From assembly GCA_014239365.1 (NCBI GenBank), contig JAAZZB010000033.1, positions 10,669 to 74,668 of the forward strand: DNA of 64,000 nt. The letters are read 5' to 3'. A model generated the notes under the pieces. The model searched no databases. It saw nothing but the letters and a program-made list of their open reading frames with translations, and was not told the DNA's origin. Positions 2,548 through 51,734 of the stretch are shown here, one piece after another (position 1 is the stretch's first letter; the number at the start of each line of letters is the position of its first letter). Source of the DNA: Verrucomicrobiia bacterium (GTDB lineage: Bacteria; Verrucomicrobiota; Verrucomicrobiia; Limisphaerales; UBA1100). A program made the translations under genes and the position numbers.

Positions 2548-3708
2548 TTAGCGTCCTTCACCGGGTGTGCGCGGCGTGGTCGGCCTGCCTTCGCCACCTC
2601 CTTCGCCACGGTTGCGGAGGCCTTCGAAACGCTGGCGCAATTCTTCGCGGCGTGCAGCCTCCTGCGGGTCGGTGATACGGAAACGGCTGCTGGTTTCCTC
2701 GGTAGGATTGGCGAGTTCATCCAGACGTTTTTCCACGGAGACAAACATCGCCTGGAAGTTTTCATCATTGGTGGTGCTTTTGAGGCTGGATAGGATGCTG
2801 CGTCGGCTGGTAATGGCTTCAGCGGCGAGGTTTTTGCCTTCGCCGAGCCGGGTGAGGTCGCGCACGAGCGTTCCGCGTGCACCACCGCCTCCGCGGCCAC
2901 TCATCATACTGCGCCAATCAAAGCCGCCGCCTCCACGGCGTTCGCCGCCTTCGGCGTTGCCTGCGGCACGTTCGGCATCGCGTTTGGCTTTTTCGGCGGC
3001 TTCGGTGGCCATGGATTGGAGGCCGTCCTTGAAACGATCCACCATCACTTGACCGGCGGCGGGGGATTCGTCGAGGTAATCATTGATGCGTCCCCACAGA
3101 TCATCTTTAGTGCGGTTTTCGATGTTGGCATCGTAATAGGCCGTGGCAAGGATGGGGACGGCTTGCGCTTCGAGCACTTTGGTGAGGTAATCCAACGCAC
3201 GACGATCAAGGCCGTTTTCGGTGATAAGCATTTTCTCGGCGTCATCTTTGAAGGTGGTGTCTTTATAACGAACCAAAATATCCCACAGGGCACCCACGGC
3301 GCGCATATCGAGTTGGCCGGGGATGTCGTTGGCGGCATCGGGTGGATTGCGGAGAATGTACTTGGCTGCGCCGAGCACTTTATCTTTGTAAGGATGCTCC
3401 GCGCCGTCGGCGAGTTTGGTGAGCTGGCGGTCGATGAGCGAAACTTCCACGCCAACTTGCGTTTGCCTGAGAGTGGTTACTAGAATCGCTTCGGCATCAG
3501 CACCGCCAATGCGTCCGAGGGTTTCGATAAGGCCGATGCGCAGAGAAATGGGCATAACGCGTTGGGGCTCGCCGGGGCGACCGCGTTCGCCGCCGGGGCG
3601 TCCTTCACCGCCGGGGCGTCCGCCTCCCGGACGAAAGCCGCCGCCGGGTTGGGCGGAGATGATTCCGGTGAGGGTTAGGAGAATCAGAATGTTGAGTGTG
3701 TGTTTCAT
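2548..3708 (-). CDS. Exported protein of unknown function; C-terminal module of the recurrent family, with Gly/Arg/Pro-rich low-complexity ends
   Basis: Signal peptide MKHTLNILILLTLTGIISAQ. The motifs PISLRIGLIETLGRIGG, LDRRALDYLTKVLEAQAVPILATAYYD and LTRLGEGKNLAAEAI align with the C-terminal two-thirds of the 57484..58845 and 23997..25247 products. Confidence 0.75.
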   Translation of the reverse strand: MKHTLNILILLTLTGIISAQPGGGFRPGGGRPGGEGRPGGERGRPGEPQRVMPISLRIGLIETLGRIGGADAEAILVTTLRQTQVGVEVSLIDRQLTKLADGAEHPYKDKVLGAAKYILRNPPDAANDIPGQLDMRAVGALWDILVRYKDTTFKDDAEKMLITENGLDRRALDYLTKVLEAQAVPILATAYYDANIENRTKDDLWGRINDYLDESPAAGQVMVDRFKDGLQSMATEAAEKAKRDAERAAGNAEGGERRGGGGFDWRSMMSGRGGGGARGTLVRDLTRLGEGKNLAAEAITSRRSILSSLKSTTNDENFQAMFVSVEKRLDELANPTEETSSRFRITDPQEAARREELRQRFEGLRNRGEGGGEGRPTTPRTPGEGR

Positions 3709-3747: not shown

Positions 3748-4482
3748 TTAACGCCCGCCTCGGCCTCCGCGATCGCCTCCGCGGCCTCCCCGGTCACCGC
3801 CGATTCCACGCATCATCATTCGGATGCGGTCGCCTTGGTCGCCGCCCATTTGTTCGAGCTGAACCTTTTGTTCGTCGGTCATCAACCCCATAAATTTTTC
3901 TGAACCACTGGACCAGATTTCACGCATTTTTTGGCCGCGTTCTTCCCGGGACAAATTACGATCTCTCATGATTTCGCCGATCTTCGTGCGGTTTTCTTCC
4001 CAGGATTTTGTGGCGAATGCGCGCATTTCCTCGATCTGCACGTTGGTGATGTTGAGCTGTTGACGGAAACTGGGCCGGCCAAATTCTTTGTCCATTTTTT
4101 GGTTCATAAAGTTGGCGATGGCGGGCAGTGATTCCTCGCCGGCATCCACCAAACTTTCGAAATAATGGATCACTCGCTTTTGTGATTCCACATCGGCTCC
4201 GGTCGTGCCATCGGCGGAAAGTTGGTCGATCAAATCCTGCGGATCGGTCACCACGCCGGGCACTTGCACATTGGATTCGCTGAGCATGATTGCGGCCTGC
4301 GATTTGGCCGCGGCCCGCAGATCCACCACTTCTGAGCGGAGCTTGGCCAACTCCTCGTTGTGGGTGTTTTCCTCCGTATGCTTTCGCTCTTGGATTTTGC
4401 TTTGTGAGGATGAGCTGGTGGCAAGATAGGTAACCGCCGAACTCACGATGATGGATGCGATGATGGCTATAACTGTTTTCAT
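3748..4482 (-). CDS. Membrane-anchored protein; N-terminal module of the recurrent family, ending in an RGG-type repeat
   Basis: An N-terminal TM (MKTVIAIIASIIVSSAVTYL), a coiled-coil-like segment EELAKLRSEVVDLRAA, and RVIHYFESLVDAGEESLPAIANFMNQKMDKEF. The C-terminus is GGDRGGRGGDRGGRGGR. The gene lies 39 nt upstream of 2548..3708 on the same strand. Confidence 0.75.
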   Translation of the reverse strand: MKTVIAIIASIIVSSAVTYLATSSSSQSKIQERKHTEENTHNEELAKLRSEVVDLRAAAKSQAAIMLSESNVQVPGVVTDPQDLIDQLSADGTTGADVESQKRVIHYFESLVDAGEESLPAIANFMNQKMDKEFGRPSFRQQLNITNVQIEEMRAFATKSWEENRTKIGEIMRDRNLSREERGQKMREIWSSGSEKFMGLMTDEQKVQLEQMGGDQGDRIRMMMRGIGGDRGGRGGDRGGRGGR

Positions 4483-7950: not shown

Positions 7951-8002
7951 CCACAGAGACACAGCGAACAAAAAAACCTCTGTGCCCTCTGTGTCTCTGT
8001 GG
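7951..8002. repeat. R2: CACAGAG/CTCTGTG hairpin repeat
   Basis: ccacagagacacag (7951-7964) is the exact reverse complement of ctgtgtctctgtgg (7989-8002). Related copies occur at 9298-9408, 30247-30286, 38970-39024 and 39715-39748. Confidence 0.8.
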
Positions 8003-8067
8003 TAAAAAAGCCGCCGCGGCCGGATAATTCGCACGAATCACCAGCCAAGTTTGGCGTCCAACACACG

Positions 8068-9297: not shown

Positions 9298-9408
9298 TCA
9301 CCACAGAGGGCACTGAGGTTGGATTGGTAGGGCGGTTTCTCCGAAACCGCCTTGGCGCGCTCGGAGAGCACGCCCTACCTCTCTGTGTTCTCTGTGCCTC
9401 TGTGGTAA
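9298..9408. repeat. Composite repeat: R1 (9326-9379) nested between the two arms of an R2 hairpin
   Basis: The left R2 arm is caccacagagggcac and the right arm is ctctgtgttctctgtgcctctgtggt. Between them lies ggtagggcggtttctccgaaaccgccttggcgcgctcggagagcacgccctacc, identical to the copy at 23764-23817. Confidence 0.8.
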
Positions 9409-17372: not shown

Positions 17373-17436
17373 GTGCTGCCGGCATCTTGCCGGCAGAAGT
17401 TGCGCTTCCGACCTGCCGGCAAGATGCCGGCAGCAC
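17373..17436. repeat. R4: palindromic repeat GTGCTGCCGGCATCTTGCCGGCAG...CTGCCGGCAAGATGCCGGCAGCAC, inside the nuo operon between nuoK and nuoL
   Basis: The two 24-nt arms are reverse complements. A second copy at 51705-51767 overlaps the lipA 3' end. Confidence 0.8.
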
Positions 17437-17442
17437 AATTAA

Positions 17443-22273: not shown

Positions 22274-23764
22274 ATGGATTACTCCGCAATATTCACCGCG
22301 CTGTTGCCCGACCTATTTGTGGTGGTGGCATTGTTCGCGGCGCTGGGGGTGGACTACACCAAACTGCGCAGCGCGTCATTGGCCGACCGCGCGTGCGCCG
22401 CCTCACGCATTTGCGGCGTGGGGCTAGTGGGCGCATTGGTGGCATTAGCATTTCAGTTGACCGGCAGCCTCGCAGTGGACGGCCACGCGCTGGAAGTGAC
22501 CACGCACGGGCAATTGGTTTTGAACGCCGGCACGTTGGCGCTAAAGGCGCTGTTGTTTTTGCTGGGACTATTGGTGCTGCCGCTGGCGGCGCGAACAATT
22601 TCCACACCGCAAGTGAGCGAATATTTCGCGTTGTTGTTGCTGGCTACTTTGGGGATGGGTTTTATGGTGACGAGCCGCAACCTGCTCGGGGCATTCGTGG
22701 CGTTGGAGTTGGTGAGCTTGAGCCTGTACGCGCTTACGGCGCTGAATTCTGCGCAAAAGGGGTCGGCCAAATCCGCTGAAGCCGCACTTAAATATTTTAC
22801 TTATGGCGGCGTGGCGTCAGCGTTTCTTTTATTTGGCATCAGTTATTTATTTGGCGCATTGGGGCAACTGGATATTACGCAAGCCACACTGGCCGAGGCA
22901 CCGCGATTAGTGGTGGTGGCGTATTTATTTATTTTGGTGGGGCTTGGCTTCAAGCTCGCGCTCGCGCCATTTCATTTGTGGGCGCCGGATGTGTACCAAG
23001 CCGCGCCCACGCCCGCAGCGGCGTGGATTGCCAGCGGCTCAAAAATCGCCGGCGTGGCGTTGTTGCTTGCCTTGCTCGGGCCGGTTTCATTGCCCTCGGC
23101 GCATTCGGCGATCGTGCCGTTGTTGTTATTAATGGCCGTGGCCAGCATGGCGGTGGGCAACCTCGGCGCGTTGCGGCAATCCAATGTCAAACGCCTCCTC
23201 GCCTACAGCGCCATTGCCAATGCCGGATATATTTTGGTGGCCGTCGTGGCCTTCACCGATGACGGCCGTGCGGCGGCACTATTTTATGCGATCGTGTACG
23301 CCGTGGCCACGCTGGGCGCGTTCGCGGTGGTGAGTGTGTGGAACGACCGACTCGGGCGCGAAGCGCTCATCGATGATTTTCGCGGGGCGTGGAAAGCCAG
23401 CCCCGGCCTTTCGCTGGCGTTATTGGTATTTGTGCTGTCGCTCGCGGGCATTCCCCCGCTCGCGGGATTTGTTGGGAAATTTTATTTATTCTTCGCCGCC
23501 ATTCACGCCGCGCCACAAATGGAATATTGGAGTGACGGATTATATTGGCTCGTGGCCGTGGCCCTCGTCTTCAGCGTGGTGGCACTTTATTATTACCTAA
23601 AAATCCTAAAAGCCGTCTTCGTGCGCGAGGAAACCGGTGAGATGGACAACACGCCGGTAGGCTTGCCCGCCTCCGTCGCCATCCTCGTGCTTGCACTGCT
23701 GACGGTAGCACTCGGCGTCTGGCCCGAGCCGGTGGTGGAATATATTCGGTTGTATTTGTTTTAG
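22274..23764 (+). CDS. nuoN: NADH-quinone oxidoreductase subunit N
   Basis: ND2-type motifs are LELVSLSLYALTA, AALKYFTYGGVASAFLLFGISYLFG and LAPFHLWAPDVYQAAPTPAAAWI. The last base of the stop codon is the first base of repeat R1. Confidence 0.9.
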   Translation: MDYSAIFTALLPDLFVVVALFAALGVDYTKLRSASLADRACAASRICGVGLVGALVALAFQLTGSLAVDGHALEVTTHGQLVLNAGTLALKALLFLLGLLVLPLAARTISTPQVSEYFALLLLATLGMGFMVTSRNLLGAFVALELVSLSLYALTALNSAQKGSAKSAEAALKYFTYGGVASAFLLFGISYLFGALGQLDITQATLAEAPRLVVVAYLFILVGLGFKLALAPFHLWAPDVYQAAPTPAAAWIASGSKIAGVALLLALLGPVSLPSAHSAIVPLLLLMAVASMAVGNLGALRQSNVKRLLAYSAIANAGYILVAVVAFTDDGRAAALFYAIVYAVATLGAFAVVSVWNDRLGREALIDDFRGAWKASPGLSLALLVFVLSLAGIPPLAGFVGKFYLFFAAIHAAPQMEYWSDGLYWLVAVALVFSVVALYYYLKILKAVFVREETGEMDNTPVGLPASVAILVLALLTVALGVWPEPVVEYIRLYLF

Positions 23765-23873
23765 GTAGGGCGGTTTCTCCGAAACCGCCTTGGCGCGCTC
23801 GGAGAGCACGCCCTACCTTTCCTACCTTTTGCGTTATCTTTCGCTTAAAGCTCCTTCGTTCACTTCCCATTTC
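23764..23873. repeat. Left direct repeat of the island: R1 copy (23764-23817) plus a duplicated recF 3'-end segment (23841-23872)
   Basis: The R1 part is 53/54 identical to 28013-28066. tcgcttaaagctccttcgttcacttcccattt matches tcgcataacgctccttcattcacttcccattt (28069-28100) at 29 of 32 positions. A 23-nt insert separates the two parts here. Confidence 0.8.
23834..23872 (-). pseudogene. Displaced remnant of the recF 3' end (last 12 codons plus stop)
   Basis: The minus-strand reading gives KWEVNEGALSER*, against the intact recF C-terminus KWEVNEGALCER* at 28062-28100. Nothing recF-like lies upstream of it. Confidence 0.6.
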
Positions 23874-23962
23874 AACACAGTCCTGCCGTGCTGAAATAGG
23901 TGCTATCAATTAAATTGATCGGTTCTATAAATAATTCTAATAGACATTTGTGCGTTTTTCTG

Positions 23963-23990
23963 TTGACGCCCCCTTTGATCCTCGTAGGCT
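23963..23990 (+). promoter_or_regulatory. Possible sigma70-like promoter for the island operon
   Basis: TTGACG (23963-23968), a 16-nt spacer, then TAGGCT (23985-23990), in an AT-rich stretch. It lies only about 7 nt before the ATG at 23997, which would make the mRNA nearly leaderless. This is a weak call. Confidence 0.2.
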
Positions 23991-23996
23991 TTGTAA

Positions 23997-25247
23997 ATGA
24001 AGCCTGCCCACGGCCTGTTATTGACGATTGGATTTGCAGTGGGCACGGGGTTTTCGTATTGGATGCTTGCGGGTTCGGTGACACCGAATCGTTCGATTTC
24101 AGATGGGCCGGATGCGGAGGAAACTATTTCTTTAGTGGAACATCGTTCAGAGCTTCAAGCTGCGCGGGCGCGGGCTAATCGGGTGGAGGTGATCGAAACC
24201 AAAATTTTTGAATCGGTGAATGTGGGTCGATCGCCAGAAGAATTAATTGAAAATCTCAAAACGGTGGAGGCGAACAGCCCGGAATTTATTCAGCGCCGGT
24301 CAGTGCATTATTTGGAAAGCCTGGTGGATTTGGGGCCCAAGTCGGTGGGGCCGATTGGCACGTTTTTGGCAGAACGAGTGGACCGTGAATATCTGACCAC
24401 GCGTCAATCGCTTACCTTGAATGGGCGCCCTGTCAGTGCCGCCGAACAAGTTCGGCGGGCGATCAGTAATCCTTTGCCCAAGCCCAATTTGAATTTCGTT
24501 AGCCCGCCTTCATTGCGGTTGGGTTGTTTCACGGTGCTACTGCAAATCGGCGGGCCGGAAGCGGAAAAGGTGTTATTGGATGTATTGAAAAAAACCGCCA
24601 GCGGCGCGGAGGTTGCGTGGTTGGATGAGATTTTGGATCGACTCAATCCCGGCACGCACCGGGACAAAGTGCTGGAAGCCGCGCGCGCGGTGCTCAAGCT
24701 TGGAAGAGCCACGGATGAGACCAGCCTATTGGATCGGCAATCCAAACGCTATTTGCTTGCCGTGTTGATCCGGCATCGCGATCTGAGCGTGCTCACCCAT
24801 TTTCTGGCAAACCTCGTGGATGCCGAAGGCCGGTTGGATCCGTTGGCGTTCCGTTATCTGCTCGACTCCCAAGTCACGGGAGGCTTGGACACTCTGCGGG
24901 AAGTGTATCGCACGCGTATGACCGATGCCGACGAACGCCGCATAGTTCGCAGCCGACTCTTGCGTTACGTGGGCACGGAACCGGGAATGGACACCTTCTA
25001 CAAAGAGACTTTCCAAGCCGCAATAGCCGGACGCGATGGGATGACCTCGCGCGATGTGAGCACCGCCCTGTTAAGCCTCAGCTTTAGCCCCATCCCCGGC
25101 CAGCGATTATCTAACAATCCAGCCTTGATTCGCAACCGCCTCCATATAATAGATGGGTTGAAACGAATGATCAGTGATCCTCAATTGCAAAAACGAATCC
25201 ACTCCACCGAACGTACCCTGAACCGGATGCTTGAACCCAATCCATAG
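23997..25247 (+). CDS. Full-length member of the recurrent membrane-anchored family (island copy)
   Basis: An N-terminal TM, then HRSELQAARARA, RRSVHYLESLVDLGPKSVGPIGTFLAERVDREY and PPSLRLGCFTVLLQIGGPEAEKVLLDVLKKT. It is collinear with the 57484..58845 product. Confidence 0.75.
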   Translation: MKPAHGLLLTIGFAVGTGFSYWMLAGSVTPNRSISDGPDAEETISLVEHRSELQAARARANRVEVIETKIFESVNVGRSPEELIENLKTVEANSPEFIQRRSVHYLESLVDLGPKSVGPIGTFLAERVDREYLTTRQSLTLNGRPVSAAEQVRRAISNPLPKPNLNFVSPPSLRLGCFTVLLQIGGPEAEKVLLDVLKKTASGAEVAWLDEILDRLNPGTHRDKVLEAARAVLKLGRATDETSLLDRQSKRYLLAVLIRHRDLSVLTHFLANLVDAEGRLDPLAFRYLLDSQVTGGLDTLREVYRTRMTDADERRIVRSRLLRYVGTEPGMDTFYKETFQAAIAGRDGMTSRDVSTALLSLSFSPIPGQRLSNNPALIRNRLHIIDGLKRMISDPQLQKRIHSTERTLNRMLEPNP

Positions 25248-25253
25248 TACATA

Positions 25254-26549
25254 ATGAAACCAAAACAAACACTCCTGAAACTTCTTCTCTTTATCCTGTT
25301 GGCTTTCCCCTCGTTGAGTTGGGCGGCGCATCAGACTGGGTCGGATCAGATGACGCTAGAATCCATCCACGGCTACTGGGCTGCGCAGGGTTCAGCGCCT
25401 GAGGACGGGGAAGTGCGATTTTCTGAGGGGAGCGCGTTCCCCGATTTCAGTGATCCGGATTGGGTTGGGCTGGATTATCCCAATTATCTGGATTGGGTTT
25501 ACGCCACGTATACTCAGGAGGGCGCAACGCTGATCGACATCACCCTTGGGTGTTGGATGAGCCAGGACTGGGAAGAATCCTATCCGAGCTACGCCGAATA
25601 TCTGGCGGCTTGCGATGAAAATGGCCGAAGAGAAACGATGCGTGAAGCGACGGCGGTTTATTTAGACAACACGACATCCGAGTACTACATAAACCAAGCA
25701 GTTGGGCAAACATTCAACCTCATTCACAATGGCGAACTGGCCACCGAACGCGAAGCCGCCGAAATCGCCGGAGCGGCTGAGGAGGGTGGCAGGGGTGGGT
25801 TGCATATTTATGTCAACGAACTTTCCTTTGGCGGGACGGATGCGCTGGGGTGGACGCAGTCCGGCGAATATCAAGGCGCAGATTTTCAAAGTGCTCAATG
25901 GGTCTCAGTGCTTACCCGTGAAGGATTGATTATGGTGGCCACCGCTGGCACCGGCACGGCGGCCTCTGCAGGATCCCGTGCAGCGTTGTACGCCAACCAA
26001 ACTCTGCTGGGATTGGATGCCTTCCGCACGGGGCAAGGGTTGGGAGATGGCCTCAACGAAATGATCGAAACAGGAGGACGATCGGGCGCGGGTACGGTGT
26101 TACTGAGTGCACTAGGAATGAGAAGGCTCCGAATGAATACTAGCTCCGCAGGAGGAACAACATTCAATAGTGCTTTGCGGGGCAACACTCGCAGATCATC
26201 AGAATTCACTACTTGGAATCAGTTTCAGGCGGGAACGAAGGGGCAATTTGCATCGAGGGGTGAAGCTGGGACAGCTTGGTCGATATACAAAAGAGCAAAC
26301 GGAATTATTACAGGAACTGTCCGCAGCTCTGCTGCAAAAAGCCAGTTTCTTCGAGAGTTGGGCAATACTGGCCAAGTGCCGAAATGGATGAATCAGTGGC
26401 TGTCAAAGGGTAAAGTCCCTCCCGGTTACCACGTTGACCACATAAAACCATTATCAACGGGAGGGCTAGACTTGCCAGCAAATATGAGGCTACAAAATAT
26501 CGATTTACATAAAACGCACCATAAATATTATCGCCCATGGGAGAAGTAA
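25254..26549 (+). CDS. Signal-peptide-bearing protein with a C-terminal HNH (beta-beta-alpha-Me) nuclease motif; candidate secreted toxin
   Basis: Signal peptide MKPKQTLLKLLLFILLAFPSLSWA. The last 45 aa or so read PPGYHVDHIKPLSTGGLDLPANMRLQNIDLHKTHH (DH...N...H pattern). A Gly/Ala/Thr-rich linker separates it from an N-terminal region with no domain I recognise. Confidence 0.65.
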   Translation: MKPKQTLLKLLLFILLAFPSLSWAAHQTGSDQMTLESIHGYWAAQGSAPEDGEVRFSEGSAFPDFSDPDWVGLDYPNYLDWVYATYTQEGATLIDITLGCWMSQDWEESYPSYAEYLAACDENGRRETMREATAVYLDNTTSEYYINQAVGQTFNLIHNGELATEREAAEIAGAAEEGGRGGLHIYVNELSFGGTDALGWTQSGEYQGADFQSAQWVSVLTREGLIMVATAGTGTAASAGSRAALYANQTLLGLDAFRTGQGLGDGLNEMIETGGRSGAGTVLLSALGMRRLRMNTSSAGGTTFNSALRGNTRRSSEFTTWNQFQAGTKGQFASRGEAGTAWSIYKRANGIITGTVRSSAAKSQFLRELGNTGQVPKWMNQWLSKGKVPPGYHVDHIKPLSTGGLDLPANMRLQNIDLHKTHHKYYRPWEK

Positions 26550-26550
26550 A

Positions 26551-26910
26551 ATGACAAAAAAAATGCTGGTAAAATATGATCCGGCGAATCCGGAAAAGTC
26601 ATCGTCTGAATTTTTATTCCCAAATCGCAATTCGGGCACGATTGCGCTGTGCAGCATTAAGAACAATGCCCCCTCGGAATTCGGATTGGTGGTTTATACT
26701 GGCAGGGATTTGTCCTCTGCCGATTTGTTTGCAAGAATCATTGAAACTGGGCATGTGATTAAATCTGTTGAACAAATGATGTGTGATCTTAAAATATTTT
26801 TGATAGAAATAAAAAATCAGAAAATCGGAAACGTGGTTGCACTCGATCAGGTGGCCATCAAAGGTGATGCCCTTCGACTACGGAGCGCAAACCTAAGGGC
26901 ATATAAGTAA
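26551..26910 (+). CDS. Small cytoplasmic protein; candidate cognate immunity protein
   Basis: 119 aa with no signal peptide. It starts 1 nt after the stop of the HNH gene (taaaATG). AT-rich, with no recognisable family. Confidence 0.45.
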   Translation: MTKKMLVKYDPANPEKSSSEFLFPNRNSGTIALCSIKNNAPSEFGLVVYTGRDLSSADLFARIIETGHVIKSVEQMMCDLKIFLIEIKNQKIGNVVALDQVAIKGDALRLRSANLRAYK

Positions 26911-26954
26911 GGGGTAAGGATCTCCTCAAATAATTAGCAAATATTTTATCACAA

Positions 26955-27422
26955 ATGACACCAATTAAATACCTGTTGACTTCCGTTGCGTTTGCATTCG
27001 TGCCGTTATATTATACTGCTGCAACTAAAGGTGAAGCAATAGATGCGCAGGTCAAGCGGCGGCAGGCTATTGAGCAATTCCAAGAGGCAGTCAATGTGAT
27101 GACTGCGGGTTTCGATACGGATGGGGATGGCCGGGTCACGCGCAAAGATGCAGACGTGAACGGTTTTCTAAGGAAGGTGGCCGCACTGCCTAATTTTGAT
27201 TGGGCTTATCCCATTACCATTGACGAGGAACTGGCAACTCTTTGGAAGAAAACCGGCCGAAAAAACAAATACCTGAAAATTATTCCCCGTGCTGAATCTG
27301 GGGGGTTTGTCGGGGGCTCGTTTAATTCACAGAGATATTATCGACCGTATAGTATTGTGCTGACAAATGAGTTGGTTAAAGTGAAAGTTGAAAAGAAAGA
27401 GTGGGAATACAAGAGTGAATAA
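26955..27422 (+). CDS. Small exported or membrane-anchored hypothetical protein with an EF-hand-like DxDxDG loop
   Basis: An N-terminal hydrophobic segment LLTSVAFAFVPLYY and the motif FDTDGDGRVTRKD. AT-rich coding region. Confidence 0.45.
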   Translation: MTPIKYLLTSVAFAFVPLYYTAATKGEAIDAQVKRRQAIEQFQEAVNVMTAGFDTDGDGRVTRKDADVNGFLRKVAALPNFDWAYPITIDEELATLWKKTGRKNKYLKIIPRAESGGFVGGSFNSQRYYRPYSIVLTNELVKVKVEKKEWEYKSE

Positions 27423-27960
27423 AATTGTATTATTTTTGATGATAGCCACGGGCGCCGGTTGCCATACTGCGCCTCAGGTGTCGGACATGGAGCTGTTCTA
27501 TCGGCACATATGGTCGCATCAGTTGTCGGATGGGATTGGGACTGTGAGGCTGCGGGATTGTCATGTGGTTTTTGTTGATCGCGGCAGGCCTGTCGATGGG
27601 CTTATTGCGCCCAGTGGTATTACGTTTGCAAGTAAGGCTACAGCAGAACGCATAAACAGCATATTTAAAAATTATCAAACAGGTCGGGAAACTTCAAAAT
27701 ATTCCGGATGCATTCCAGTTGTTTACCTTCGGTTAAGCAGGATTACTTTTGGCGCAAAAAAGCACGCGGTCCCTGGCGGGAATATAATTACCACACATCA
27801 TGCGCGATTGTATTTAACTGTGGGAATCGTGGAGGCGAAATCCGATCTATTTAAATTGCATAGACCTTCTATGCATGCTTCAAAATACGAATACATATTT
27901 TCATTGAATGGGAAGTGGCAGCCAACGTATTCCGGCCCGGAAAATGTTCCTATTCCTTAA
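27415..27960 (+). CDS. Putative lipoprotein, unknown function
   Basis: The GTG at 27415 gives VNKIVLFLMIATGAGC, a lipobox-like sequence. It overlaps the previous stop by 8 nt. The track ORF begins at 27388. Confidence 0.45.
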   Translation: MNKIVLFLMIATGAGCHTAPQVSDMELFYRHIWSHQLSDGIGTVRLRDCHVVFVDRGRPVDGLIAPSGITFASKATAERINSIFKNYQTGRETSKYSGCIPVVYLRLSRITFGAKKHAVPGGNIITTHHARLYLTVGIVEAKSDLFKLHRPSMHASKYEYIFSLNGKWQPTYSGPENVPIP

Positions 27961-28012
27961 AGGGGTCAGTTCTTACTGTTGACAACTGGCTTTATTGTGG
28001 GTTTGAGATTCG

Positions 28013-28102
28013 GGTAGGGCGATTTCTCCGAAACCGCCTTGGCGCGCTCGGAGAGCACGCCCTACCTTTCGCATAACGCTCCTTCATTCACTTCCCATTT
28101 TT
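28013..28102. repeat. Right direct repeat of the island: R1 copy (28013-28066) plus the genuine recF 3' end
   Basis: See 23764-23873. The recF stop codon (cta at 28062-28064) lies inside the CCCTACC arm of R1. Confidence 0.8.
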
Positions 28103-29138
28103 GCAATTCTTCGCCTAATTCCTCGGGCCAGTTTTGTTCGGTGCAGGTCATGAAGACTTGGCCTCGGCCTTGGGTGCATTGGTTTAGGAGGGGGAGGAAG
28201 GCTTGGCGGCGGGGGGCGTCGAGTTCGCCCATGACATCATCGATCAAGAGGATGGGCGGGGCGCCGTGGGTGGCGGCGAGGTGCTCGGCTTGGGCGAGTT
28301 TGAGGGCGATGGCGAGGGTGCGTTTTTGGCCTTCACTGGCGAAATCGGCGGCGGGTTTGTGGTTGAGCTGGAGGCTCAATTCATCGCGGTGCGGGCCGAG
28401 GAGGGTGGAGCCGAGGGCGCGCTCGCGTTCGCGCACGCGCTGGAGTTCGGCAGCGAAATCTTCTTTGACGCGGGGTTGGTATTCGACGTGCAGTTCTTCG
28501 CCATCGGGGGCGATGCGGGCGTGGGCGGCGGTGATGCGCGGGGCGAGTTCGGGCAGGAGCGCGTGGCGGTGAGCCATTATTTCGTTGCCGAGTTTTACCA
28601 TTTCGTGTGTGAAACTTTCGAGGGTGGCTTCGTCGACGGGGCGGCGTTTTAGCAATGCATTTCGGGAGCGCACGGCGCGGGTGTAGTTTTGCAAAAGGGG
28701 CAGGTATGTGGGCAGGGTTTGGGTGAGGAGAAAATCAAGGAAGCGCCGGCGGCCGCGTCCGGCGCCTTTGATGAGCTGGAGATCCTCGGTGCAAAAGGCG
28801 ACGGTGCGGAGTGTGCCGAGGTAATCGCTGAGCTTGCGGATGGGTTGTTCGTCGAGCGTGAGGCGGCGTTCGTTTTTGCTCCAATAAAGTTTGATGGCGT
28901 GGGAGGCGGTGGCGATGGCGCGTCCGCCCACGAACCATCCGGGTTGGCCGTGGCGCACCATCGCGGCGCTGCCGACGCCGCGAAAGCTGCGCAGGGTGGC
29001 GAGCAGATGAACGGCTTCGAGCAGATTGGTTTTGCCCTGCGCATTGCGGCCGAGTAGCACGTGAAAGCCCGGCCCGAAGTCGGCATCGAGCCGCCGGTAG
29101 TTTCGAAAATCCCGCAATCGCAAATGCCCCAGGTGCAC
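28062..29138 (-). CDS. recF: DNA replication and repair protein RecF
   Basis: MHLGHLRLRDFRNY...LLGRNAQGKTNLLEAV carries the Walker A motif, SEGQKRTLAIALKLA is the signature motif, and ILLIDDVMGELD is Walker B. Confidence 0.92.
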   Translation of the reverse strand: MHLGHLRLRDFRNYRRLDADFGPGFHVLLGRNAQGKTNLLEAVHLLATLRSFRGVGSAAMVRHGQPGWFVGGRAIATASHAIKLYWSKNERRLTLDEQPIRKLSDYLGTLRTVAFCTEDLQLIKGAGRGRRRFLDFLLTQTLPTYLPLLQNYTRAVRSRNALLKRRPVDEATLESFTHEMVKLGNEIMAHRHALLPELAPRITAAHARIAPDGEELHVEYQPRVKEDFAAELQRVRERERALGSTLLGPHRDELSLQLNHKPAADFASEGQKRTLAIALKLAQAEHLAATHGAPPILLIDDVMGELDAPRRQAFLPLLNQCTQGRGQVFMTCTEQNWPEELGEELQKWEVNEGALCER

Positions 29139-29183: not shown

Positions 29184-30194
29184 TTATGGGCCCTTCACTT
29201 TGGCGCGCGGGTGGGCGTCGTTGTAGGCTTCCTTGAGGCGGTCGGTGGTGAGGTGGGTGTAGACTTGAGTGGTGACGAGATTTTCGTGGCCGAGGAGTTC
29301 CTGCACGCTGCGGAGATCGGCACCGGCGTTAAGCAAATGAGTTGCGTAACTGTGGCGCAGTTTGTGCGGGGTGAGGGTGGGATCCAGATTGGCGGCGGCG
29401 AGGTAGTGTTTGAAATGCAACTGCACGAGGCGCGGATAAACAGGCCGGAGGTCATCGGGGTTGGCGAGGAAGACGGGCATCTCGTCGCTGGGCGGATGCT
29501 TCAGCGCGGCCCAGTAGCGCTCGATGGCCGCCACGGCGGGCGCGCCGATGGGCACTTGGCGTTCCTTTTTGCCTTTGCCGCGGACGCGCAGCAGGCGCTC
29601 GGTGCGATCAAGATCGAGCACGCGCATCCCGCAGACTTCGCTGATGCGCAGGCCGCAGGAATAAATGGCCTCGAGGATGGCGGCATCGCGAAGGTACGGC
29701 GCGGGGTCAATTTCGATTTCGGTTTCGTCATTCGCTTCTTCTTTGGCTTGCTCTTGAGCGGTGGCGAGTTCCGCGAGCGGGGCGTCCATCAACGCGGTGG
29801 TTTGCTCGAGCGTGAGAAATTGCGGGAGGCGTTTTTCTTTTTTGGGCAGTGTGATGTCGCGGACGGGTGAGGCATCGAGTTTGCCGCGCCGCATCAGATG
29901 TTTGTAAAATGAACGCAGCGCGGAGAAGCGTAACTGCACCGCCGAGCGGCTGAGATTGCCGCGTCCGAGGAAGCGCAAGTAGCCACGGAAATCGAGTTTT
30001 TTTAAGTGCAACCAATCGGGAGCTTGTTTGCGTTCATCCAAGAACCATCGCGAAAATTCAGTGAGCGCCTGCCGATAATTCCGCTGCGTGTACACGGACG
30101 CGCCGGCCTCAGTGTGCAAGTAATCGAGGAACGACGACACGAATGCGTCGTCATCCGCAACGGATGTTTTGGAAATGGCTGCCCTCCCCGGCAT
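29184..30194 (-). CDS. Tyrosine recombinase, XerC/XerD-like
   Basis: SFLDYLHTEAGASVYTQRNYRQAL is the N-terminal SAM-like domain. The catalytic residues are GLRISEV (R), HKLRHSYATHLL (H-x-x-R) and LGHENLVTTQVYTHL (H...Y). There is an acidic insertion (AQEQAKEEANDETEIEID) between the domains. Confidence 0.88.
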   Translation of the reverse strand: MPGRAAISKTSVADDDAFVSSFLDYLHTEAGASVYTQRNYRQALTEFSRWFLDERKQAPDWLHLKKLDFRGYLRFLGRGNLSRSAVQLRFSALRSFYKHLMRRGKLDASPVRDITLPKKEKRLPQFLTLEQTTALMDAPLAELATAQEQAKEEANDETEIEIDPAPYLRDAAILEAIYSCGLRISEVCGMRVLDLDRTERLLRVRGKGKKERQVPIGAPAVAAIERYWAALKHPPSDEMPVFLANPDDLRPVYPRLVQLHFKHYLAAANLDPTLTPHKLRHSYATHLLNAGADLRSVQELLGHENLVTTQVYTHLTTDRLKEAYNDAHPRAKVKGP

Positions 30195-38969: not shown

Positions 38970-39024
38970 ATCACAGAGAACACAGAGCGGTTTTTTCTCT
39001 GTGCTCTCTGTGCCTCTGTGGTAT
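38970..39024. repeat. R2 complete hairpin (left flank of the TA cassette)
   Basis: The sequence is atcacagagaacacagag-cggtttttt-ctctgtgctctctgtgcctctgtggtat. The right arm is repeated directly at 39715-39746. Confidence 0.8.
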
Positions 39025-39714: not shown

Positions 39715-39748
39715 TTTTTTCCCTGTGCTCTCTGTGCCTCTGTGGTTA
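39715..39748. repeat. R2 solo arm (right flank of the TA cassette)
   Basis: ttttttccctgtgctctctgtgcctctgtggt shares an identical 24-mer (ctgtgctctctgtgcctctgtggt) and the T6 prefix with 38991-39022. Confidence 0.8.
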
Positions 39749-40145: not shown

Positions 40146-41674
40146 GCGATTCCCCGCACATCACGCCTTCGCGCGAGGCATTTCTGCAGCACGCGGAGCA
40201 GGGAAATTTGGTTCCGGTGTATCGCGAAATTCTCGCGGACTTCGAGACGCCGCTTTCGGCGTATCGCAAAATTCGGTCCGGCGGCGAGGCGTTTCTGTGC
40301 GAGAGCGTGGAGGGCGGCGAGCATTTGAGCCGGTACTCGTTCGTGGGCTGCAACCCGCGCGGGATCATTCGGCAGGATGGCGATCAAGTGCAGGTGGTCG
40401 AAGGCGGCAAAGTGACGGCGACGTATACGGTGAGCCGCGAGCCCGGCGAAAACCACGTACGCGATGGCCTCGAAGTGGTGGAAAAAGTTTTGGGTCGTTA
40501 TCGGCCTGTGGATTTGCCGGGGCTGCCGCGATTTACGGGTGGCGCGATGGGGTTTGTGGGGTATGAATTTATTCACGACGTGGAGCCGGTGGTGCCGCGT
40601 CCGCCCAAGGATGAGCTCGGCACGCCGACGATGTATTTTTTGATCGCGGATGAGCTTTTGATTTTCGATCGCGTGCGGCAGACGGTGACGGTTCTTGTGA
40701 ACGCCATCATCGAGGACGGCGCGAAACCGGAGGACGCCTACGAAGATGCCGTCGACGAAGTGGAGCGCCTCGTGTCGTTGCTTGAGCAACCCACCGAACA
40801 CCGCGCCGTGACGCTCACCGCCGAGCCGCCGCCCGCCGCGTTTGAGTCCAATATGGACAAGGCCGATTTCCTAGCAAACGTTGCCAAGAGCAAGGAATAC
40901 ATTCGCGCGGGCGACATCATTCAAGTGGTCGGCTCGCAGCGATTCTCCACCGAGGTAAAAGCCGATCCGCTCGATGTGTACCGCGCCGTGCGATCCATCA
41001 ATCCATCGCCGTATATGTTTCTGCTCGAGCTCGATGGCTTTTCGTTGGTCGGTGCTTCGCCGGAAATTCACGTGCGCTGCGAGGAAGGCGAAGTGCAAAT
41101 CCGCCCCATCGCCGGCACGCGCCCGCGCGGTGCCACCACCGCCGAAGATTTGACCCACGAAAAAGATTTGCTCGCCGACCCCAAAGAACGCGCCGAGCAC
41201 GTGATGCTTGTCGACCTCGCCCGCAACGACATCGGCCGCGTCTGCGAATACGGCAGCGTGCAAGTCGCCGACCTCATGATCATCGAGCGTTACAGCCACG
41301 TGATGCACATCGTCTCCAGCGTCACCGGCAAACTCACCGCCGACAAAACGCCTTACGATCTGCTGCGCACCACCTTCCCCGCCGGCACCCTCACCGGCGC
41401 GCCCAAGATTCGCGCCATGCAAATCATCAGCGAATTCGAGCAAACCACCCGCGGCCCCTACGGCGGCACCGTCGGCTACTTCAGCTTCAACGGCAACCTC
41501 GACTGCTGCATCACCATCCGCACCGCGTTGTTAAAAGACGGCAAGGCGTACGTCCAAGCCGGCGGCGGTTGGGTCAACGATTCCGTGCCCGAAACCGAAT
41601 TCGAAGAAACCGTCAACAAAGCCAAAGCCATGATCAAAGCCATCGCCCTCGCCGAGCATTGCGTAAAACTGTAG
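40142..41674 (+). CDS. trpE: Anthranilate synthase component I
   Basis: 510 aa with a GTGA overlap with hisI. It carries [33 protein letters not shown] and [11 protein letters not shown]. The stop codon lies inside repeat R5. Confidence 0.93.
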
Positions 41675-41782
41675 CCCGGGCCGATGGCCCGGGGGGTCGG
41701 TTTGTAGCCCGGGCCGGTGGCCCGGGGCCCGGACCACCGGTCCGGGCTACATTGGCGCGCTCGGAGAGCACGCCCTACCTTT
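41670..41782. repeat. Composite repeat: two tandem R5 units fused to the right half of R1
   Basis: The sequence tgtagcccgggccgatggcccgg...tgtagcccgggccggtggcccggggcccggaccaccggtccgggctaca is followed by ttggcgcgctcggagagcacgccctaccttt. Confidence 0.75.
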
Positions 41783-41861
41783 CTCAACCTTCCTCCACCA
41801 ATTCAGCATTGCCCCCCATCGCCAAACCTGCTTTAGTGCGCCCCCCGAAATCAGAAAAATT

Positions 41862-42281
41862 ATGGCTACTGAACGCTCACTCATATTGCTCAAACCCGAC
41901 TGCCTCAACGGCCATCACGCTGGCGAAGTCATCGGACGTTTTGAAAAAGCCGGTTTCGAAATCCGCGCCACCAAGCTCATCGCCCTCACCGATGATCTCC
42001 TCAAAGAACACTACGCGCACATCGCCGACCGACCCTTCTTTCCCGAGATCGTAGAATTTATGAGCGCCCGCCCCGTGCTCGCCCTCGTCCTCGAAGGCGA
42101 AAACGCCGTCGCCGCCATCCGCGACCTCCTCGGCCCCACCGATTCCACCAAAGCCCCCGCCGGAACCATCCGCGGCGACATGGGCACCACCAGCATGAAA
42201 AACATCTGCCACGCCAGCGACTCAGTCGAAAACGCCGCCATCGAAGTAGAGCGCTTCTTCAACGCGGGCGAGGTGTATTAG
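41862..42281 (+). CDS. ndk: Nucleoside-diphosphate kinase
   Basis: ERSLILLKPD, RPFFPEIVEFM, GTIRGD and NICHASDS (active-site His) are present. Confidence 0.95.
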   Translation: MATERSLILLKPDCLNGHHAGEVIGRFEKAGFEIRATKLIALTDDLLKEHYAHIADRPFFPEIVEFMSARPVLALVLEGENAVAAIRDLLGPTDSTKAPAGTIRGDMGTTSMKNICHASDSVENAAIEVERFFNAGEVY

Positions 42282-43111
42282 GGAATTCTCCCTGCGGCCC
42301 GAAGATTTATTCGCATCGATCGGAGCGAGTTGTTTGGATTAAAGATGCCAGTAGTATAACTGGGTGTCACCATCGAGCCTCCGTTTTGAATTAGATTGAT
42401 TCTAATTCCTCCCGTGCCAGAACCTCCGCCTGTGGTTTCGCCTGTGGTTCCGCCTGTGGTTCCGCCTGTGGTTCCGCCTGTGGTTCCGCCTGTGGTTCCG
42501 CCTGTGGTTCCGCCTGTGGTTCCGCCTGTGGTTCCGCCTGTGGTTCCGCTTGTGGTTCCGCTTGTGGTGGATTGACCTGGTGTGCCTTCATTTTTTAACG
42601 TGACTGTAACAGAGTTGACAGATGCAAACGAATTTGTCACGCCTTCGATTGTTTGAGTGCAACTTGCATTCACAGTATAAGTAACAGATCTCCCGCGATC
42701 TGCCGTCGTTGCATTTGCTGCGGCTCCTCCGGGGAAATCCTCATCTTTGATTGAAATCCTTCGGCCAGTCCAAGGGCAAGGAGTGCTTCCTGTCCATTTC
42801 CAATTTTCATCTCGAATGTATGGGTTGGCAGCAGTGTTAGTATCTACACACGTAATATTCATTGTCCATTTGTAATCTAGATTCCTTGTGACTGCAATAA
42901 AAGCTCCAGTTTGTACGTCTATAGTCCGTGTAAGAGTGATGGGGACAGGTTCTACGGCTCTAGGACTGCTTTCTTTCATAATTTTTATCGATTGTAATCG
43001 ATTATAAGTCTGTGCAGACAGAGATGTACAAAGGGCAAACAACAGGATCGATACTGTAATTAATCCAGCGCTTGAGCGATGTCGTATTTGAGTGTGGCTT
43101 GTATGTTTCAT
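42278..43111 (-). CDS. Exported hypothetical protein with a (T-G-G-T)n tract
   Basis: The start at the ATG at 43109-43111 (MKHTSHTQ...LLFALCTSLSAQ) overlaps the stop of the upstream gene (ATGA). The gene is AT-rich, and its stop overlaps the convergent ndk stop. The tract reads TSGTTSGT(TGGT)x8TGETTGGG. Confidence 0.6.
   Translation of the reverse strand: MKHTSHTQIRHRSSAGLITVSILLFALCTSLSAQTYNRLQSIKIMKESSPRAVEPVPITLTRTIDVQTGAFIAVTRNLDYKWTMNITCVDTNTAANPYIRDENWKWTGSTPCPWTGRRISIKDEDFPGGAAANATTADRGRSVTYTVNASCTQTIEGVTNSFASVNSVTVTLKNEGTPGQSTTSGTTSGTTGGTTGGTTGGTTGGTTGGTTGGTTGGTTGGTTGETTGGGSGTGGIRINLIQNGGSMVTPSYTTGIFNPNNSLRSMRINLRAAGRIP
42424..42568. repeat. 12-bp tandem repeat (cctgtggttccg), about 8 perfect units plus 4 degenerate units, in-frame within a CDS
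   Basis: Read directly from the sequence. The units are identical at the nucleotide level. Confidence 0.9.
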
Positions 43112-44172
43112 CTGAAATTCACAACAGTCCAATTACTTCCTTGATCGTCTGTGTATTTGAGGCCCGTTACCATATCGTTCTTAGTGTTGAGATCGATTGC
43201 AATGCTTGTGATGATTTTGTTGCTGTCTGGAAGAATGATGTTTAGATTTCTATACACGAAATAATCAATTCCACTATTTAGACTGTGGACAGTTTTTGGA
43301 GGGCCTCCGAATATTTGCTCAATTTGTCGCCTTGATTTCCCCCACAAAATTTTTTGAAGTGCACCCAACGAAGTGCCCCGATAGTTTGCAAATATATTTC
43401 TCCGCGCCGGTGCGGCTGGTGCCTGAGGTCGAGCAGGTGTTACAGCAGGGGTAGTGCCAGCGGGTGTGCCGGGCGTTTGCTCAAGCCCAGCAACGTGTTG
43501 GCCTCTCAACGCACCGTTGATTGCACCAGCCTGCGCCATTTTTGTTGCGGCATCATTTGCGTTTTTGTTTTGTGCGATGATATTGCCAACGCGTTGCCAT
43601 TTGGCAGCGGCTTGAAGGTTTATTTGAGAATTAGCATCGCCGGATTGGTGAATCCACTGCAAATAGTGTGCCGCTGGTAGGTAAGCATCTTTGGTGGCGG
43701 CGTGTTCAAAATATTTCAAGGATTGCCCGATGTTGGCTGCCCGGCCATAGCCGTGGAATAAACAGAAACCATTGTAAAAGGCCGGGCTGGCTTTGTTGGC
43801 TTCTATCAAATAGGTGTTGAGAATCCGAGTATCACGCGTGATTTCAGATGGGTACATATAATACAACGGATAACGTGTGGGGGATTTTGCCTTATGCAAT
43901 CTTATGAGCACGCCTTCGGGGGTGATGACGGCGATTTTTCCGGTGATGATTTTGCCGTTTTTTAGGTTGTACTGGCCTGATACTGTGTTTTTCGGAGCGG
44001 GGGGCTTTGGAAATCGCTTCAGACCGTTCGCGATGAAGGGGGTTGTGGGCTGAGTTATCAGGGGAAGCCCGGTGATGGGGTTAATTACATTCCCTTGCCC
44101 TTGGGTAAATCCTGCAAATGCCAATGTAGCTACGATTGCCCAAGCAGTTTGATGATTTGTTTTGGTTCTCAT
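43108..44172 (-). CDS. Exported protein with a Sel1-like repeat region
   Basis: It has a signal peptide (AIVATLAFAGFTQG) and an INPITGLP motif. The Sel1-like segment is FYNGFCLFHGYGRAANIGQSLKYFEHAATKDAYLPAAHYL. AT-rich. Confidence 0.55.
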   Translation of the reverse strand: MRTKTNHQTAWAIVATLAFAGFTQGQGNVINPITGLPLITQPTTPFIANGLKRFPKPPAPKNTVSGQYNLKNGKIITGKIAVITPEGVLIRLHKAKSPTRYPLYYMYPSEITRDTRILNTYLIEANKASPAFYNGFCLFHGYGRAANIGQSLKYFEHAATKDAYLPAAHYLQWIHQSGDANSQINLQAAAKWQRVGNIIAQNKNANDAATKMAQAGAINGALRGQHVAGLEQTPGTPAGTTPAVTPARPQAPAAPARRNIFANYRGTSLGALQKILWGKSRRQIEQIFGGPPKTVHSLNSGIDYFVYRNLNIILPDSNKIITSIAIDLNTKNDMVTGLKYTDDQGSNWTVVNFR

Positions 44173-50838: not shown

Positions 50839-51734
50839 GCGCCCTCGCCGAACCCCCGCAACAAAAACGCCCGCGCTTGCCGGAGTGGTTTCGGCTGCAA
50901 CTGCCGACAGCCAGCGCGTACTTCGCCACACGTAATCTCATCGACGACCTCAACCTCCACACCGTTTGCGAAAGCGCGCGCTGTCCAAACCATTGGGAAT
51001 GCTGGAGCAAAGGCACCGCCACTTTTATGATCGCCGGCGATCGCTGCACGCGCGCGTGTGGTTTCTGCGCGGTGGATACCCGCAAGCCGATGGCGCTTGA
51101 GGCCGATGAACCCGAACGCGTCGCCGAAGCCACGCGGCGAATGAAGCTCAAGCACGTCGTCATCACCGCCGTGGCCCGCGATGATTTGGCCGATGGCGGC
51201 GCGGCACATTTTCAAAACGTCATCGAACGTGTGCGCGCGGTGAATCCCGAAATCATCATCGAAGTGCTTACACCTGATTTTTTGGATGACGATGCCGCCA
51301 TCGATACCGTGCTCGCTGCGCAGCCGGAAATTTTCAATCACAACCTGGAAACCATCCGCCGCCTCACCCCCGAAGTGCGTTCGGTGGCGACTTACGAACG
51401 CTCGCTTTCGGTTTTGAAAAAAGTGAAACAGCGCGCCTCAAACATGTTCACTAAATCCGGCCTCATGCTCGGCCTTGGTGAAACGGAAGCCGAACTGCAC
51501 GAGGCGATGGCCGACCTTCGCGCCGTTGGCTGCGATCTCCTCACGCTCGGTCAATACCTTCAGCCCACCAAAAAGCATTTGCCCGTCGTCGAATTCATCC
51601 ATCCCGACCAATTCGCCGAACACAAAAAAACCGCCGAGACAATGGGCTTCACCCACGTCGCCAGCGGGCCGTTGGTTCGCAGTTCGTATCACGCCGATGA
51701 TTTCGTGCTGCCGACATCTTGCCGGCAGGAGTGA
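50835..51734 (+). CDS. lipA: Lipoyl synthase
   Basis: CESARCPNHWEC binds the auxiliary cluster and CTRACGFC is the radical-SAM motif. The last codons (VLPTSCRQE*) are encoded by repeat R4. Confidence 0.93.
   Translation: MSALAEPPQQKRPRLPEWFRLQLPTASAYFATRNLIDDLNLHTVCESARCPNHWECWSKGTATFMIAGDRCTRACGFCAVDTRKPMALEADEPERVAEATRRMKLKHVVITAVARDDLADGGAAHFQNVIERVRAVNPEIIIEVLTPDFLDDDAAIDTVLAAQPEIFNHNLETIRRLTPEVRSVATYERSLSVLKKVKQRASNMFTKSGLMLGLGETEAELHEAMADLRAVGCDLLTLGQYLQPTKKHLPVVEFIHPDQFAEHKKTAETMGFTHVASGPLVRSSYHADDFVLPTSCRQE

Follow-up and report, generated by a model that had tools for sequence, protein, structure and literature searches.

A small genomic islet without a recombinase gene of its own, carrying a putative toxin module, between nuoN and recF of a marine Verrucomicrobiia bacterium

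The stretch of DNA analysed in this work (the window) comprises 64,000 nt of contig JAAZZB010000033.1 of a Verrucomicrobiia bacterium (GCA_014239365.1). Between nuoN, the last gene of the nuo operon, and recF this window carried an interior of 4140 bp (23873-28012) with five open reading frames (ORF1 to ORF5), all of them on the + strand, which was missing from ten related nuoN-recF loci. The insertion is real, and it is a fairly ordinary small genomic island that has no recombinase gene of its own. Our preferred reading, to which we give a probability of roughly 55%, is that of a small non-autonomous genomic islet that, in a lineage of marine Verrucomicrobium, entered the hotspot between nuoN and recF by Campbell-type recombination.

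Site occupancy varied among relatives, whose contigs or metagenome-assembled genomes (MAGs) provided the loci labelled L001 and so forth. The RecF-based scan of metagenome contigs returned 49 loci, and the states of the nuoN-recF site were read by tblastn with the window proteins and by reading the junctions. nuoN was followed directly by recF in ten related contigs or MAGs (RecF 69-95% identical), and six of the ten had between the two genes the 54-nt palindromic repeat R1 that also flanks the islet. Seven of these empty sites were close (RecF 93-95%; L001, L067, L093, L094, L095, L096, and L128). Since the distant relatives L097, L099, and L100 (RecF 69-79%) also presented nuoN and recF about 95 bp apart, with neither repeat nor remnant, the adjacency of both genes is ancestral and the island derived. 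L001 (CALKBX010000005.1) and L067 (JAPKDK010000150.1) were collinear with both island flanks at about 88-90% nucleotide identity, their alignments jumping from 23820/23872 straight to 28013. Identity of nuoN reached 86-96% at the nucleotide level in relatives with or without the island. An earlier reading made from the sequence alone (the sequence-only reading) had proposed an insertion into an ancestral order nuoN - R1 - recF; both the insertion and this order were recovered in the relatives.

The islet was bracketed by a direct repeat formed by R1 and the last 12 recF codons, which occurred twice in the same orientation (23764-23872 and 28013-28100). R1 (GGTAGGGCG...CGCCCTACC; in full GGTAGGGCGGTTTCTCCGAAACCGCCTTGGCGCGCTCGGAGAGCACGCCCTACC) matched its pattern with 0 mismatches at 9327, 23765, and 28014 (0 matches in shuffles), and a half copy was found at 41752. 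The recF-tail 23-mer GCTCCTTCNTTCACTTCCCATTT appeared in the window only at 23850 and 28078, the chance expectation being 0. Alignment of both regions gave 1/54 differing positions between the left R1, R1(L) (23764-23817), and the right one, R1(R) (28013-28066), and 3/32 between the tail 32-mers, in agreement with the identities of 53/54 and 29/32 that had been proposed; the duplicated segment is therefore as real as initially described, but the shared sequence ends at 23872 and 28100 and not at 23873 and 28102. Translation of the right copy, on the minus strand, gave ...KWEVNEGALCER followed by a stop, the true end of the 358-aa RecF, with the TAG stop located inside the R1 head. The left copy (23834-23872, minus strand) encodes 12 codons, KWEVNEGALSER, ending in a TAA stop of its own, and is an orphan recF 3' end, as had been anticipated. 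It is R1, however, and not the orphan tail as previously stated, that directly abuts the TAG stop of nuoN. The left copy contained 21 extra nt between R1 and the tail, made up of a 9-nt tandem duplication of CCTACCTTT (two units, 23812-23829) and the spacer GCGTTATCTTTC (23831-23842), which overlaps the orphan stop and occurs at empty sites as well. The recF tail stood in the same order after R1(L) and after R1(R), with CTTTC following the latter, and the unit was collinear except for one 12/13-nt indel. The idea that the repeat continues into a degenerate 3' end of nuoN was rejected: about 15/34 positions matched upstream of R1(R), which is not above chance.

The tail did not belong to the dispersed R1 family. 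Uniqueness of the repeats was assessed in the window and in the R1 loci of relatives, the source genome of the window being absent from the scanned species representatives. The right-hand 25-mer of R1 was present at no fewer than 91 loci, that is at least 91, in other genomes (one genome scanned per species). Allowing up to 5 mismatches, the recF tail accompanied R1 at 2/91 of the foreign loci listed (L001 and L067, both of them orthologous nuoN-recF sites) and was lacking at the remaining 89/91, as well as at the other R1 copies of the window. The claim that the 32-mer is no part of the repeat family thus held.

Which of the two copies is the original one could be approached from their architecture. 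The left copy was collinear with one class of empty sites (type A: nuoN, R1, spacer GCGTTATCTTTC, TAA, tail), and its architecture was that of the functional recF ends of L001, L093, and L094, save for the 9-bp duplication. This duplication, present in the window but neither in L092 nor in any empty site, is a private slip, because the island-bearing L092 lacks it. The recF-attached copy, by contrast, had no 12-nt spacer, took its TAG stop from within R1(R), and displayed a G>A variant of R1 (GGGCGATTTC); this form was found only in the window, L092, and L138, all of them island-bearing. Such differences, with a left copy like the empty site and a right copy specific to the island, are what Campbell-type integration predicts. 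The right end of the repeat is marked by TCACTTCCCATTT, which was nearly invariant in the sampled functional recF alleles (L138 differs at two positions). L138 shares the right end of the island, R1(R), and ~20 nt at the start of the tail, but these are joined to a different recF allele, so that a breakpoint lies inside the recF tail. In L139 the orphan tail beside R1 occupied the same position but belonged to another recF allele type, which suggests use of this site in at least two backgrounds. Its nuoN end was only 87% identical to the window; its recF end was near-identical, but in a region highly conserved in all alleles. Taken together, L138, L139, and the conservation of TCACTTCCCATTT suggest that recombination recurs in a short stretch of the recF tail, within a small sample whose record is blurred by homologous recombination between strains.

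Close relatives (RecF at least 93%) displayed seven different nuoN-recF configurations. Type A empty sites (L001, L093, and L094) read nuoN, R1, CTTTT, GCGTTA(T/A)C(T/G)TTC, and a tail with a TAA stop; R1 abutted the tail in type B (L067, L095, and L128), and type C (L096) had no R1 and a 130-bp AT-rich spacer. Type D (L140) carried a different insert of 658 bp with a small Cys-rich ORF; in this insert (reverse complement of 127-785) we observed a 139-aa Cys-rich protein and other GTAG variants of the repetitive extragenic palindromic (REP) element. Type E (L139 and L137) consisted of nuoN, R1, a degenerate B-type orphan tail, a chimeric ORF1' plus a DUF805 gene, the 62-bp right end of the island, another REP with an AT-rich spacer, and recF. 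Type F, with the same repeats as the window, was represented by L092, L138, and L141 (ERZ23487725).

Just before the right repeat, a conserved segment (AAAGGGGTCAGTTCTTACTGTTGACAA...GAGATTCG; 27958-28012) was common to the island type of the window, L092, and L138 and to that of L137 and L139. It closed both island types as a segment of ~55-62 bp immediately before the REP, and L139 contained an inverted 27-bp copy of it at a breakpoint that truncates ORF1 (the positions concerned in L139, reverse complement, are 463-491 and 1398-1458). The 27-mer occurred nowhere beyond the island end and this single inverted copy, and it was rejected as a dispersed repeat. The segment may represent an end of the element, serve as a binding site, or act as a regulatory signal.

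The order of events that we propose would be the following. A circular DNA with its own copy of REP element plus last 12 recF codons would have recombined once with the chromosome, the crossover falling within or close to TCACTTCCCATTT at the 3' end of recF. The native recF end of the chromosome, with its own TAA stop and 13-nt spacer, would have been left as an orphan beside nuoN, and recF would now end in the copy brought by the islet, its stop being the TAG of the R1 head. The islet encodes no recombinase; the enzyme would have acted in trans or would have been lost, or else homologous recombination of the host would have done the work. The cargo would have comprised a Sec-exported polymorphic toxin with an HNH tip, its immunity gene, the ORF1 accessory protein, and two exported proteins. 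Later on, the interior would have been remodelled by cassette replacement, the low-GC toxin tip, immunity gene, and ORF4-5 being the youngest layer, and the flanks would have been shuffled among strains by homologous recombination. The predicted circle junction reads right end (GGGTTTGAGATTCG) - R1(R) - CTTTCGCATAACGCTCCTTC[A/G]TTCACTTCCCATTT - CAACACAGTCC / CAACACAGTCCTGCC; it was not present in the contigs fetched. The sequence-only reading had proposed an element that integrates at an att site and brings a replacement 3' end. The replacement agrees with the empty-site architecture of the orphan copy and with the restriction of the recF-attached form to island-bearing contigs, whereas we only infer site-specific att integration, just as we infer the circle, the point of crossover, and the enzyme.

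No significant Pfam or NCBIfam hit was obtained for any of the five ORFs. ORF1 (23997-25247, 416 aa) had an N-terminal membrane anchor and was a 30-35% identical paralog of host genes at 57484-58845, 2548-3708, and 3748-4482. Homologs of ORF1 in other loci (44-65% identical; L145, L146, and L148) preceded proteins that contain the ~70-aa domain found at the N-terminus of ORF2, so that this domain and ORF1 constitute a conserved pair. Such pairs, in which the domain bears the motif ...DPDW..., were observed in L145 (1393-4686), L146, L148, and the window (23997-25560), in unrelated loci, and they suggest a putative accessory-plus-trafficking-domain pair, so far undescribed, for secreted polymorphic proteins in Verrucomicrobia. 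These ORF1 homologs were also used to look for a larger form of the islet with an integrase, which was rejected, as the three loci lay in other contexts and contained neither recombinases nor R1.

ORF2 (25254-26549, 431 aa) began with a signal peptide and the conserved N-terminal domain of ~70 aa, followed by a linker and, at the C-terminus, a putative HNH domain (aa 317-430, DNA 26202-26549). Only the part from aa ~317 to 430 was 55-72% identical to the tips of Rhs-named, RHS (PF05593), PT-HINT (PF07591), and Fil_haemagg_2 (PF13332) proteins, with 64% identity to an Escherichia coli Rhs fragment. The profile built from 13 homologs of the tip matched solved HNH domains (Cas8f-HNH) at E ~1e-6; PF01844 matched 13/13 of these homologs, always below its gathering score, and the DH...N...H motif was invariant. 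ORF2 is thus a putative secreted polymorphic toxin with an HNH nuclease tip. ORF3 (26551-26910, 119 aa) is the candidate cognate immunity protein: its homologs (32-35% identical) lay directly downstream of homologous toxin tips in three unrelated loci (L142-L144), and because they directly follow such toxins, ORF2 and ORF3 were considered a polymorphic-toxin/immunity pair. ORF4 (26955-27422, 155 aa), with a hydrophobic N-terminus, and ORF5 (27412-27960, ~182 aa), lipoprotein-like with the N-terminal ...LMIATGAGC (lipobox-like GAGC) and 98-99% identical in L092 and L138, are predicted from these N-termini to be small exported proteins. The last codons of ORF4 formed the right border of the segment swapped in L092. 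Paralogy, profile matches, immunity synteny, and hydrophobic N-termini agreed with the five same-strand ORFs initially described (a family paralog, an HNH protein, a small partner, and two small exported proteins). Scans for promoters and terminators gave counts no different from those of shuffles.

Composition of the interior differed from that of its surroundings, as had been claimed. GC content was 0.496 in 23874-28012 vs. 0.571 in the whole window, and comparison of GC at third codon positions (GC3) with the flanks revealed a drop in two tiers, from 0.70-0.75 in nuoL/M/N, recF, xer, and topA to 0.56-0.60 in ORF1 and the N-terminal part of ORF2, and to 0.43-0.46 in the toxin tip of ORF2, ORF3, ORF4, and ORF5. 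The lowest-GC stretch of 1.8 kb in the window began at 26201, the start of the toxin tip. Identity to L092 (JACKQG010000043.1) was equally uneven: 96.5% for nuoN and 97.0% for recF, 91.6% for ORF1 and 81% for the left intergenic region, no similarity along 2.1 kb (25314-27389), and 99.4-100% for ORF5, the right end, and the right repeat. The dissimilar stretch of L092 held other secreted proteins, one of them with a HEMGH motif, between the same repeats as in the window. Because 2.1 kb of the interior is replaced in this relative, the islet is layered and was remodelled by cassette replacement; the initial picture of a single-cassette island gave way to one that is mosaic both compositionally and evolutionarily.

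Several observations weigh against the entry of a circular element as proposed above. The two copies of the repeat have diverged about as much as alleles do between strains, and sequence alone cannot prove which of them came from outside. The composition of ORF1 and of the N-terminal part of ORF2 is only slightly atypical, and the host has paralogs of ORF1; a close relative, and not a mobile element, may have been the source of part of the island. The island type of L139 and L137 had no R1 on the right, and its right flank equalled the native intergenic region of the empty L096, which a simple model of one element and one attP does not predict; as both contigs combine a left orphan tail with a different REP on the right, the repeat may not require R1. 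The contigs examined yielded neither an integrase or excisionase gene nor a circular junction or a product of exact excision. The ~90 bp of homology are short for RecA-dependent integration. Finally, viral, plasmid, or phage relatives of the islet were looked for and none was found: viral contigs contained no relatives of ORF1 or ORF5, island DNA had no blastn match in plasmids or phages, and an origin of this kind was rejected.

An origin in situ, which we regard as unlikely although deserving attention, would dispense with mobile element and circle altogether: R1 and the recF tail would first have been duplicated locally in tandem, by REP-mediated unequal crossing-over or hairpin slippage, and genes would have accreted later between the copies through homologous or illegitimate recombination. 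R1 forms a strong hairpin and belongs to a dispersed REP family, and REPs are known join-points of tandem duplications in enterobacteria. The high plasticity of the site, with its seven configurations including the 658-bp insert of L140, the fresh 9-bp slippage duplication of the window, and the mosaic layers of the interior all fit such a history. Nevertheless, the duplication without cargo was seen in no contig, the copies differ in spacer and stop where a plain tandem duplication would yield identical ones, and the second island type duplicates the tail but not R1.

On another reading, the insertion would have duplicated only the ~35-bp recF tail and R1(R) would be a mobile REP doublet inserted independently and later at the recF stop, the ~90-bp repeat being partly coincidental. 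The different REP and the 130-bp AT-rich spacer at the right junction of L139 and L137 point in this direction, as does the variation in presence, absence, and position of R1 relative to the recF stop among empty types A, B, and C; besides, GTAG REP termini commonly give TAG stops to neighbouring ORFs (PMC3733652). We consider this doubtful: CTTTC and the tail come after R1(R) in the order seen at R1(L), the whole unit being collinear apart from the 12/13-nt indel, and it is less parsimonious to suppose that an independent insertion landed with exactly this relative position and orientation.

Comparably doubtful is the idea that the repeat of R1 and recF tail serves as attachment site for a trans-acting recombinase, be it an integrase encoded elsewhere, a GTAG-recognising REP-associated transposase, or the Xer-like neighbour. 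Were it true, toxin cassettes that lack an integrase would act as satellite integrative elements, hopping between marine Verrucomicrobia strains and rewriting the recF end each time, and the orphan tails of two recF allele types (window/L092 vs. L139) would record independent integrations at the same nucleotide. To our knowledge, REPs are not known as att sites for islands.

Catalysis of integration and excision by the Xer-like neighbour itself, at a dif-like site in the repeat, as in integrative mobile elements exploiting Xer recombination (IMEX) or in dif modules, appears very improbable. The genes flanking the islet were nuoN on the left (22274-23764, + strand; Pfam Proton_antipo_M, E = 1.4e-61) and recF on the right (28062-29138, - strand; Pfam SMC_N and AAA_21), whose last 12 codons (28062-28100 with the stop) form the right copy of the tail. 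The Xer-like tyrosine recombinase gene, a neighbour outside the island (29184-30194, - strand), stood 45 bp beyond recF; its product, XerC/XerD-like, scored 292.9 bits with TIGR02224 XerC, below the cut-off of 335. This location, which the sequence-only reading had given correctly, carries no link to the island, because the gene was conserved next to recF at empty sites as well: it was present in every close relative with enough sequence, empty or occupied, and was 85-88% conserved in the empty L001, L067, L093, L095, and L096. The right tail contained TTTCGCATAA, which we take to resemble a XerC half-site, although the resemblance is no better than chance: the 28-nt window of the repeat scored 13/22 arm positions against the E. 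coli dif reference, chance matches elsewhere in the window reached 14-15, and no dif-like site was detected in the window at up to 3 mismatches. A dif/Xer site in the tail was accordingly rejected; the half-site, moreover, was not found in the B- and C-type tails that also flank the island. Inside the islet, neither ORF1-5 (Pfam and NCBIfam scans) nor the variant ORFs of L092 contained a recombinase domain, which bears out the earlier statement that no recombinase lies within.

That the island is ancestral to the clade and the empty sites are secondary deletions is hardly credible, for, although ~90-bp direct repeats would promote deletions and type-A sites resemble the product of a crossover within the tail, the distant L097, L099, and L100 show neither repeat nor remnant in their ~95 bp, an orphan recF tail needs a prior duplication or insertion event, and the cargo is atypical in composition.

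The nature of R1 could be established from its architecture, which is that of a GTAG-tagged REP or REP doublet forming hairpins (REPIN). It is made up of two inverted hairpin units of ~25 nt, each GTAG-headed (GTAGGGCGGTTTCTCCGAAACCGCC and, inverted, GTAGGGCGTGCTCTCCGAGCGCGCC), and folds at -35 to -37 kcal/mol with z about -5 (-36.5 kcal/mol and z = -5.4 for R1(L), the same element occupying this position in relatives with an empty site). The 64-kb window contained three full copies and one half copy. Its right half, GCGCGCTCGGAGAGCACGCCCTACC, was observed at 23792-23817, 28041-28066, 9354-9379, and 41752-41779 and was identical over 25 nt in the at least 91 loci mentioned above, from several phyla. 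Among the loci listed were many Verrucomicrobiota, Kiritimatiellales, and Victivallales and some Zoogloeaceae/Betaproteobacteria, with the constant half paired with varying left hairpins and a perfect inverted doublet in L029. REP families are usually lineage-specific; against this background the identity of a 25-nt half across phyla is unusual. GTAG-tagged REPs are known in the Planctomycetes-Verrucomicrobia-Chlamydiae (PVC) superphylum, where they often donate TAG stops to neighbouring ORFs (PMC3733652). Rfam gave no match for R1 or the junctions, and no tRNA or tmRNA was found in the window.

Other repeats were observed along the window. The motif (T)CTCTGTGCCTCTGTGGT, at 7972-8003, 9375-9406, 38991-39022, and 39715-39746, directly followed R1 at 9375 and also in L002, L008, L023, and L026, which suggests that both form compound repeat clusters similar to bacterial interspersed mosaic elements (BIME-like). 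Between trpE-like and ndk-like genes, three or four different REP units were clustered (41668-41783) beside the second-lowest-GC stretch of the window (42278-44172), which encodes two secreted proteins, one of them with a 12-nt tandem repeat (42389-42604) that gives a (TTGG)n tract; the region 41668-44172 may be another accessory islet. Downstream of a long mfd-like ORF, a 9-nt tandem repeat of GAAACAGGC was present in about 9 copies (62850-62948). Two further palindromic families, CTGCCGGCAAGATGCCGGCAG and GTAGCCCGGGCCGGTGGCCCGGGG, appeared paired at two distant sites (17373-17437 and 51705-51768) and at 1845-1874.

The nuoN-recF islet provides, for uncultured marine Verrucomicrobia, an example of a competition weapon (a putative secreted HNH toxin with its immunity protein) carried in an islet that varies between strains but occupies a fixed hotspot of the chromosome, and of a conserved repair gene that can exchange its last codons and yet remain an intact gene. 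The predicted circle junction is searchable in existing metagenomic reads and would separate active mobility from a frozen scar. Possibly more original leads are the REP half-site identical over 25 nt across phyla and the undescribed N-terminal domain which, with its ORF1 partner, would serve polymorphic toxins.

Compared with known systems, the islet resembled the integrase-mediated islands at gene 3' ends, such as those in tRNA or tmRNA genes and the tycheposons of marine Prochlorococcus (bioRxiv 10.1101/2020.12.28.424599), in its position at the 3' end of a conserved gene that is kept intact, its direct repeats, one of them a partial orphan gene end, its atypical composition and cargo genes, and its presence or absence among close strains. 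It differed from them in that the target is the protein-coding recF plus a REP element instead of a tRNA, and in that none of the four island-carrying contigs contained an integrase, excisionase, or replication gene; with respect to tycheposons in particular, there is no tRNA or tmRNA in the window and no recombinase in the island, although integrase-less remnants have been described for them (bioRxiv 10.1101/2020.12.28.424599). Among the traits of integrative islands, flanking repeats with part of the target gene, empty sites, and atypical composition were thus present and an internal integrase was absent. Unlike IMEX and dif modules, the islet repeats had no dif-like junction site (13/22 arm matches). 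Flexible genomic islands and core-gene hotspots exchanged via flank homology (PMC10872708) share with this locus different contents at the same position in close strains (seven configurations) and mosaic identities on the two flanks, but flank-homology exchange alone makes no duplicated gene end, and the orphan recF tail needs an extra integrative or duplicative step. R1 agreed with the GTAG REP/REPIN elements (PMC3733652; Bertels & Rainey, PMC3337134) in its GTAG heads at both ends, its two inverted hairpins of ~25 nt, and its extragenic and dispersed occurrence, giving recF its TAG stop and abutting that of nuoN, whereas it departed from them in being only part of a duplicated segment and in a right half identical over 25 nt across several phyla. 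As in polymorphic toxins (Rhs, contact-dependent inhibition or CDI, and PT-HINT), the C-terminal ~115 aa of ORF2 were shared at 55-72% identity with toxins of different N-terminal architecture, an immunity homolog always followed, the DNA of toxin tip and immunity gene was lower in GC than the N-terminal part, and the sister contig L092 had another module behind a related N-terminus. In contrast with these toxins, ORF2 possessed no Rhs/YD, haemagglutinin, or PT-HINT region nor any Pfam-recognised trafficking domain, and had instead a Sec signal and the undescribed ~70-aa N-terminal domain recurring next to ORF1-like genes. In kind, the islet adds one more case to what is already known of integrase-less islets at hotspots, of polymorphic toxin modules, and of REP elements, and is not a new class.

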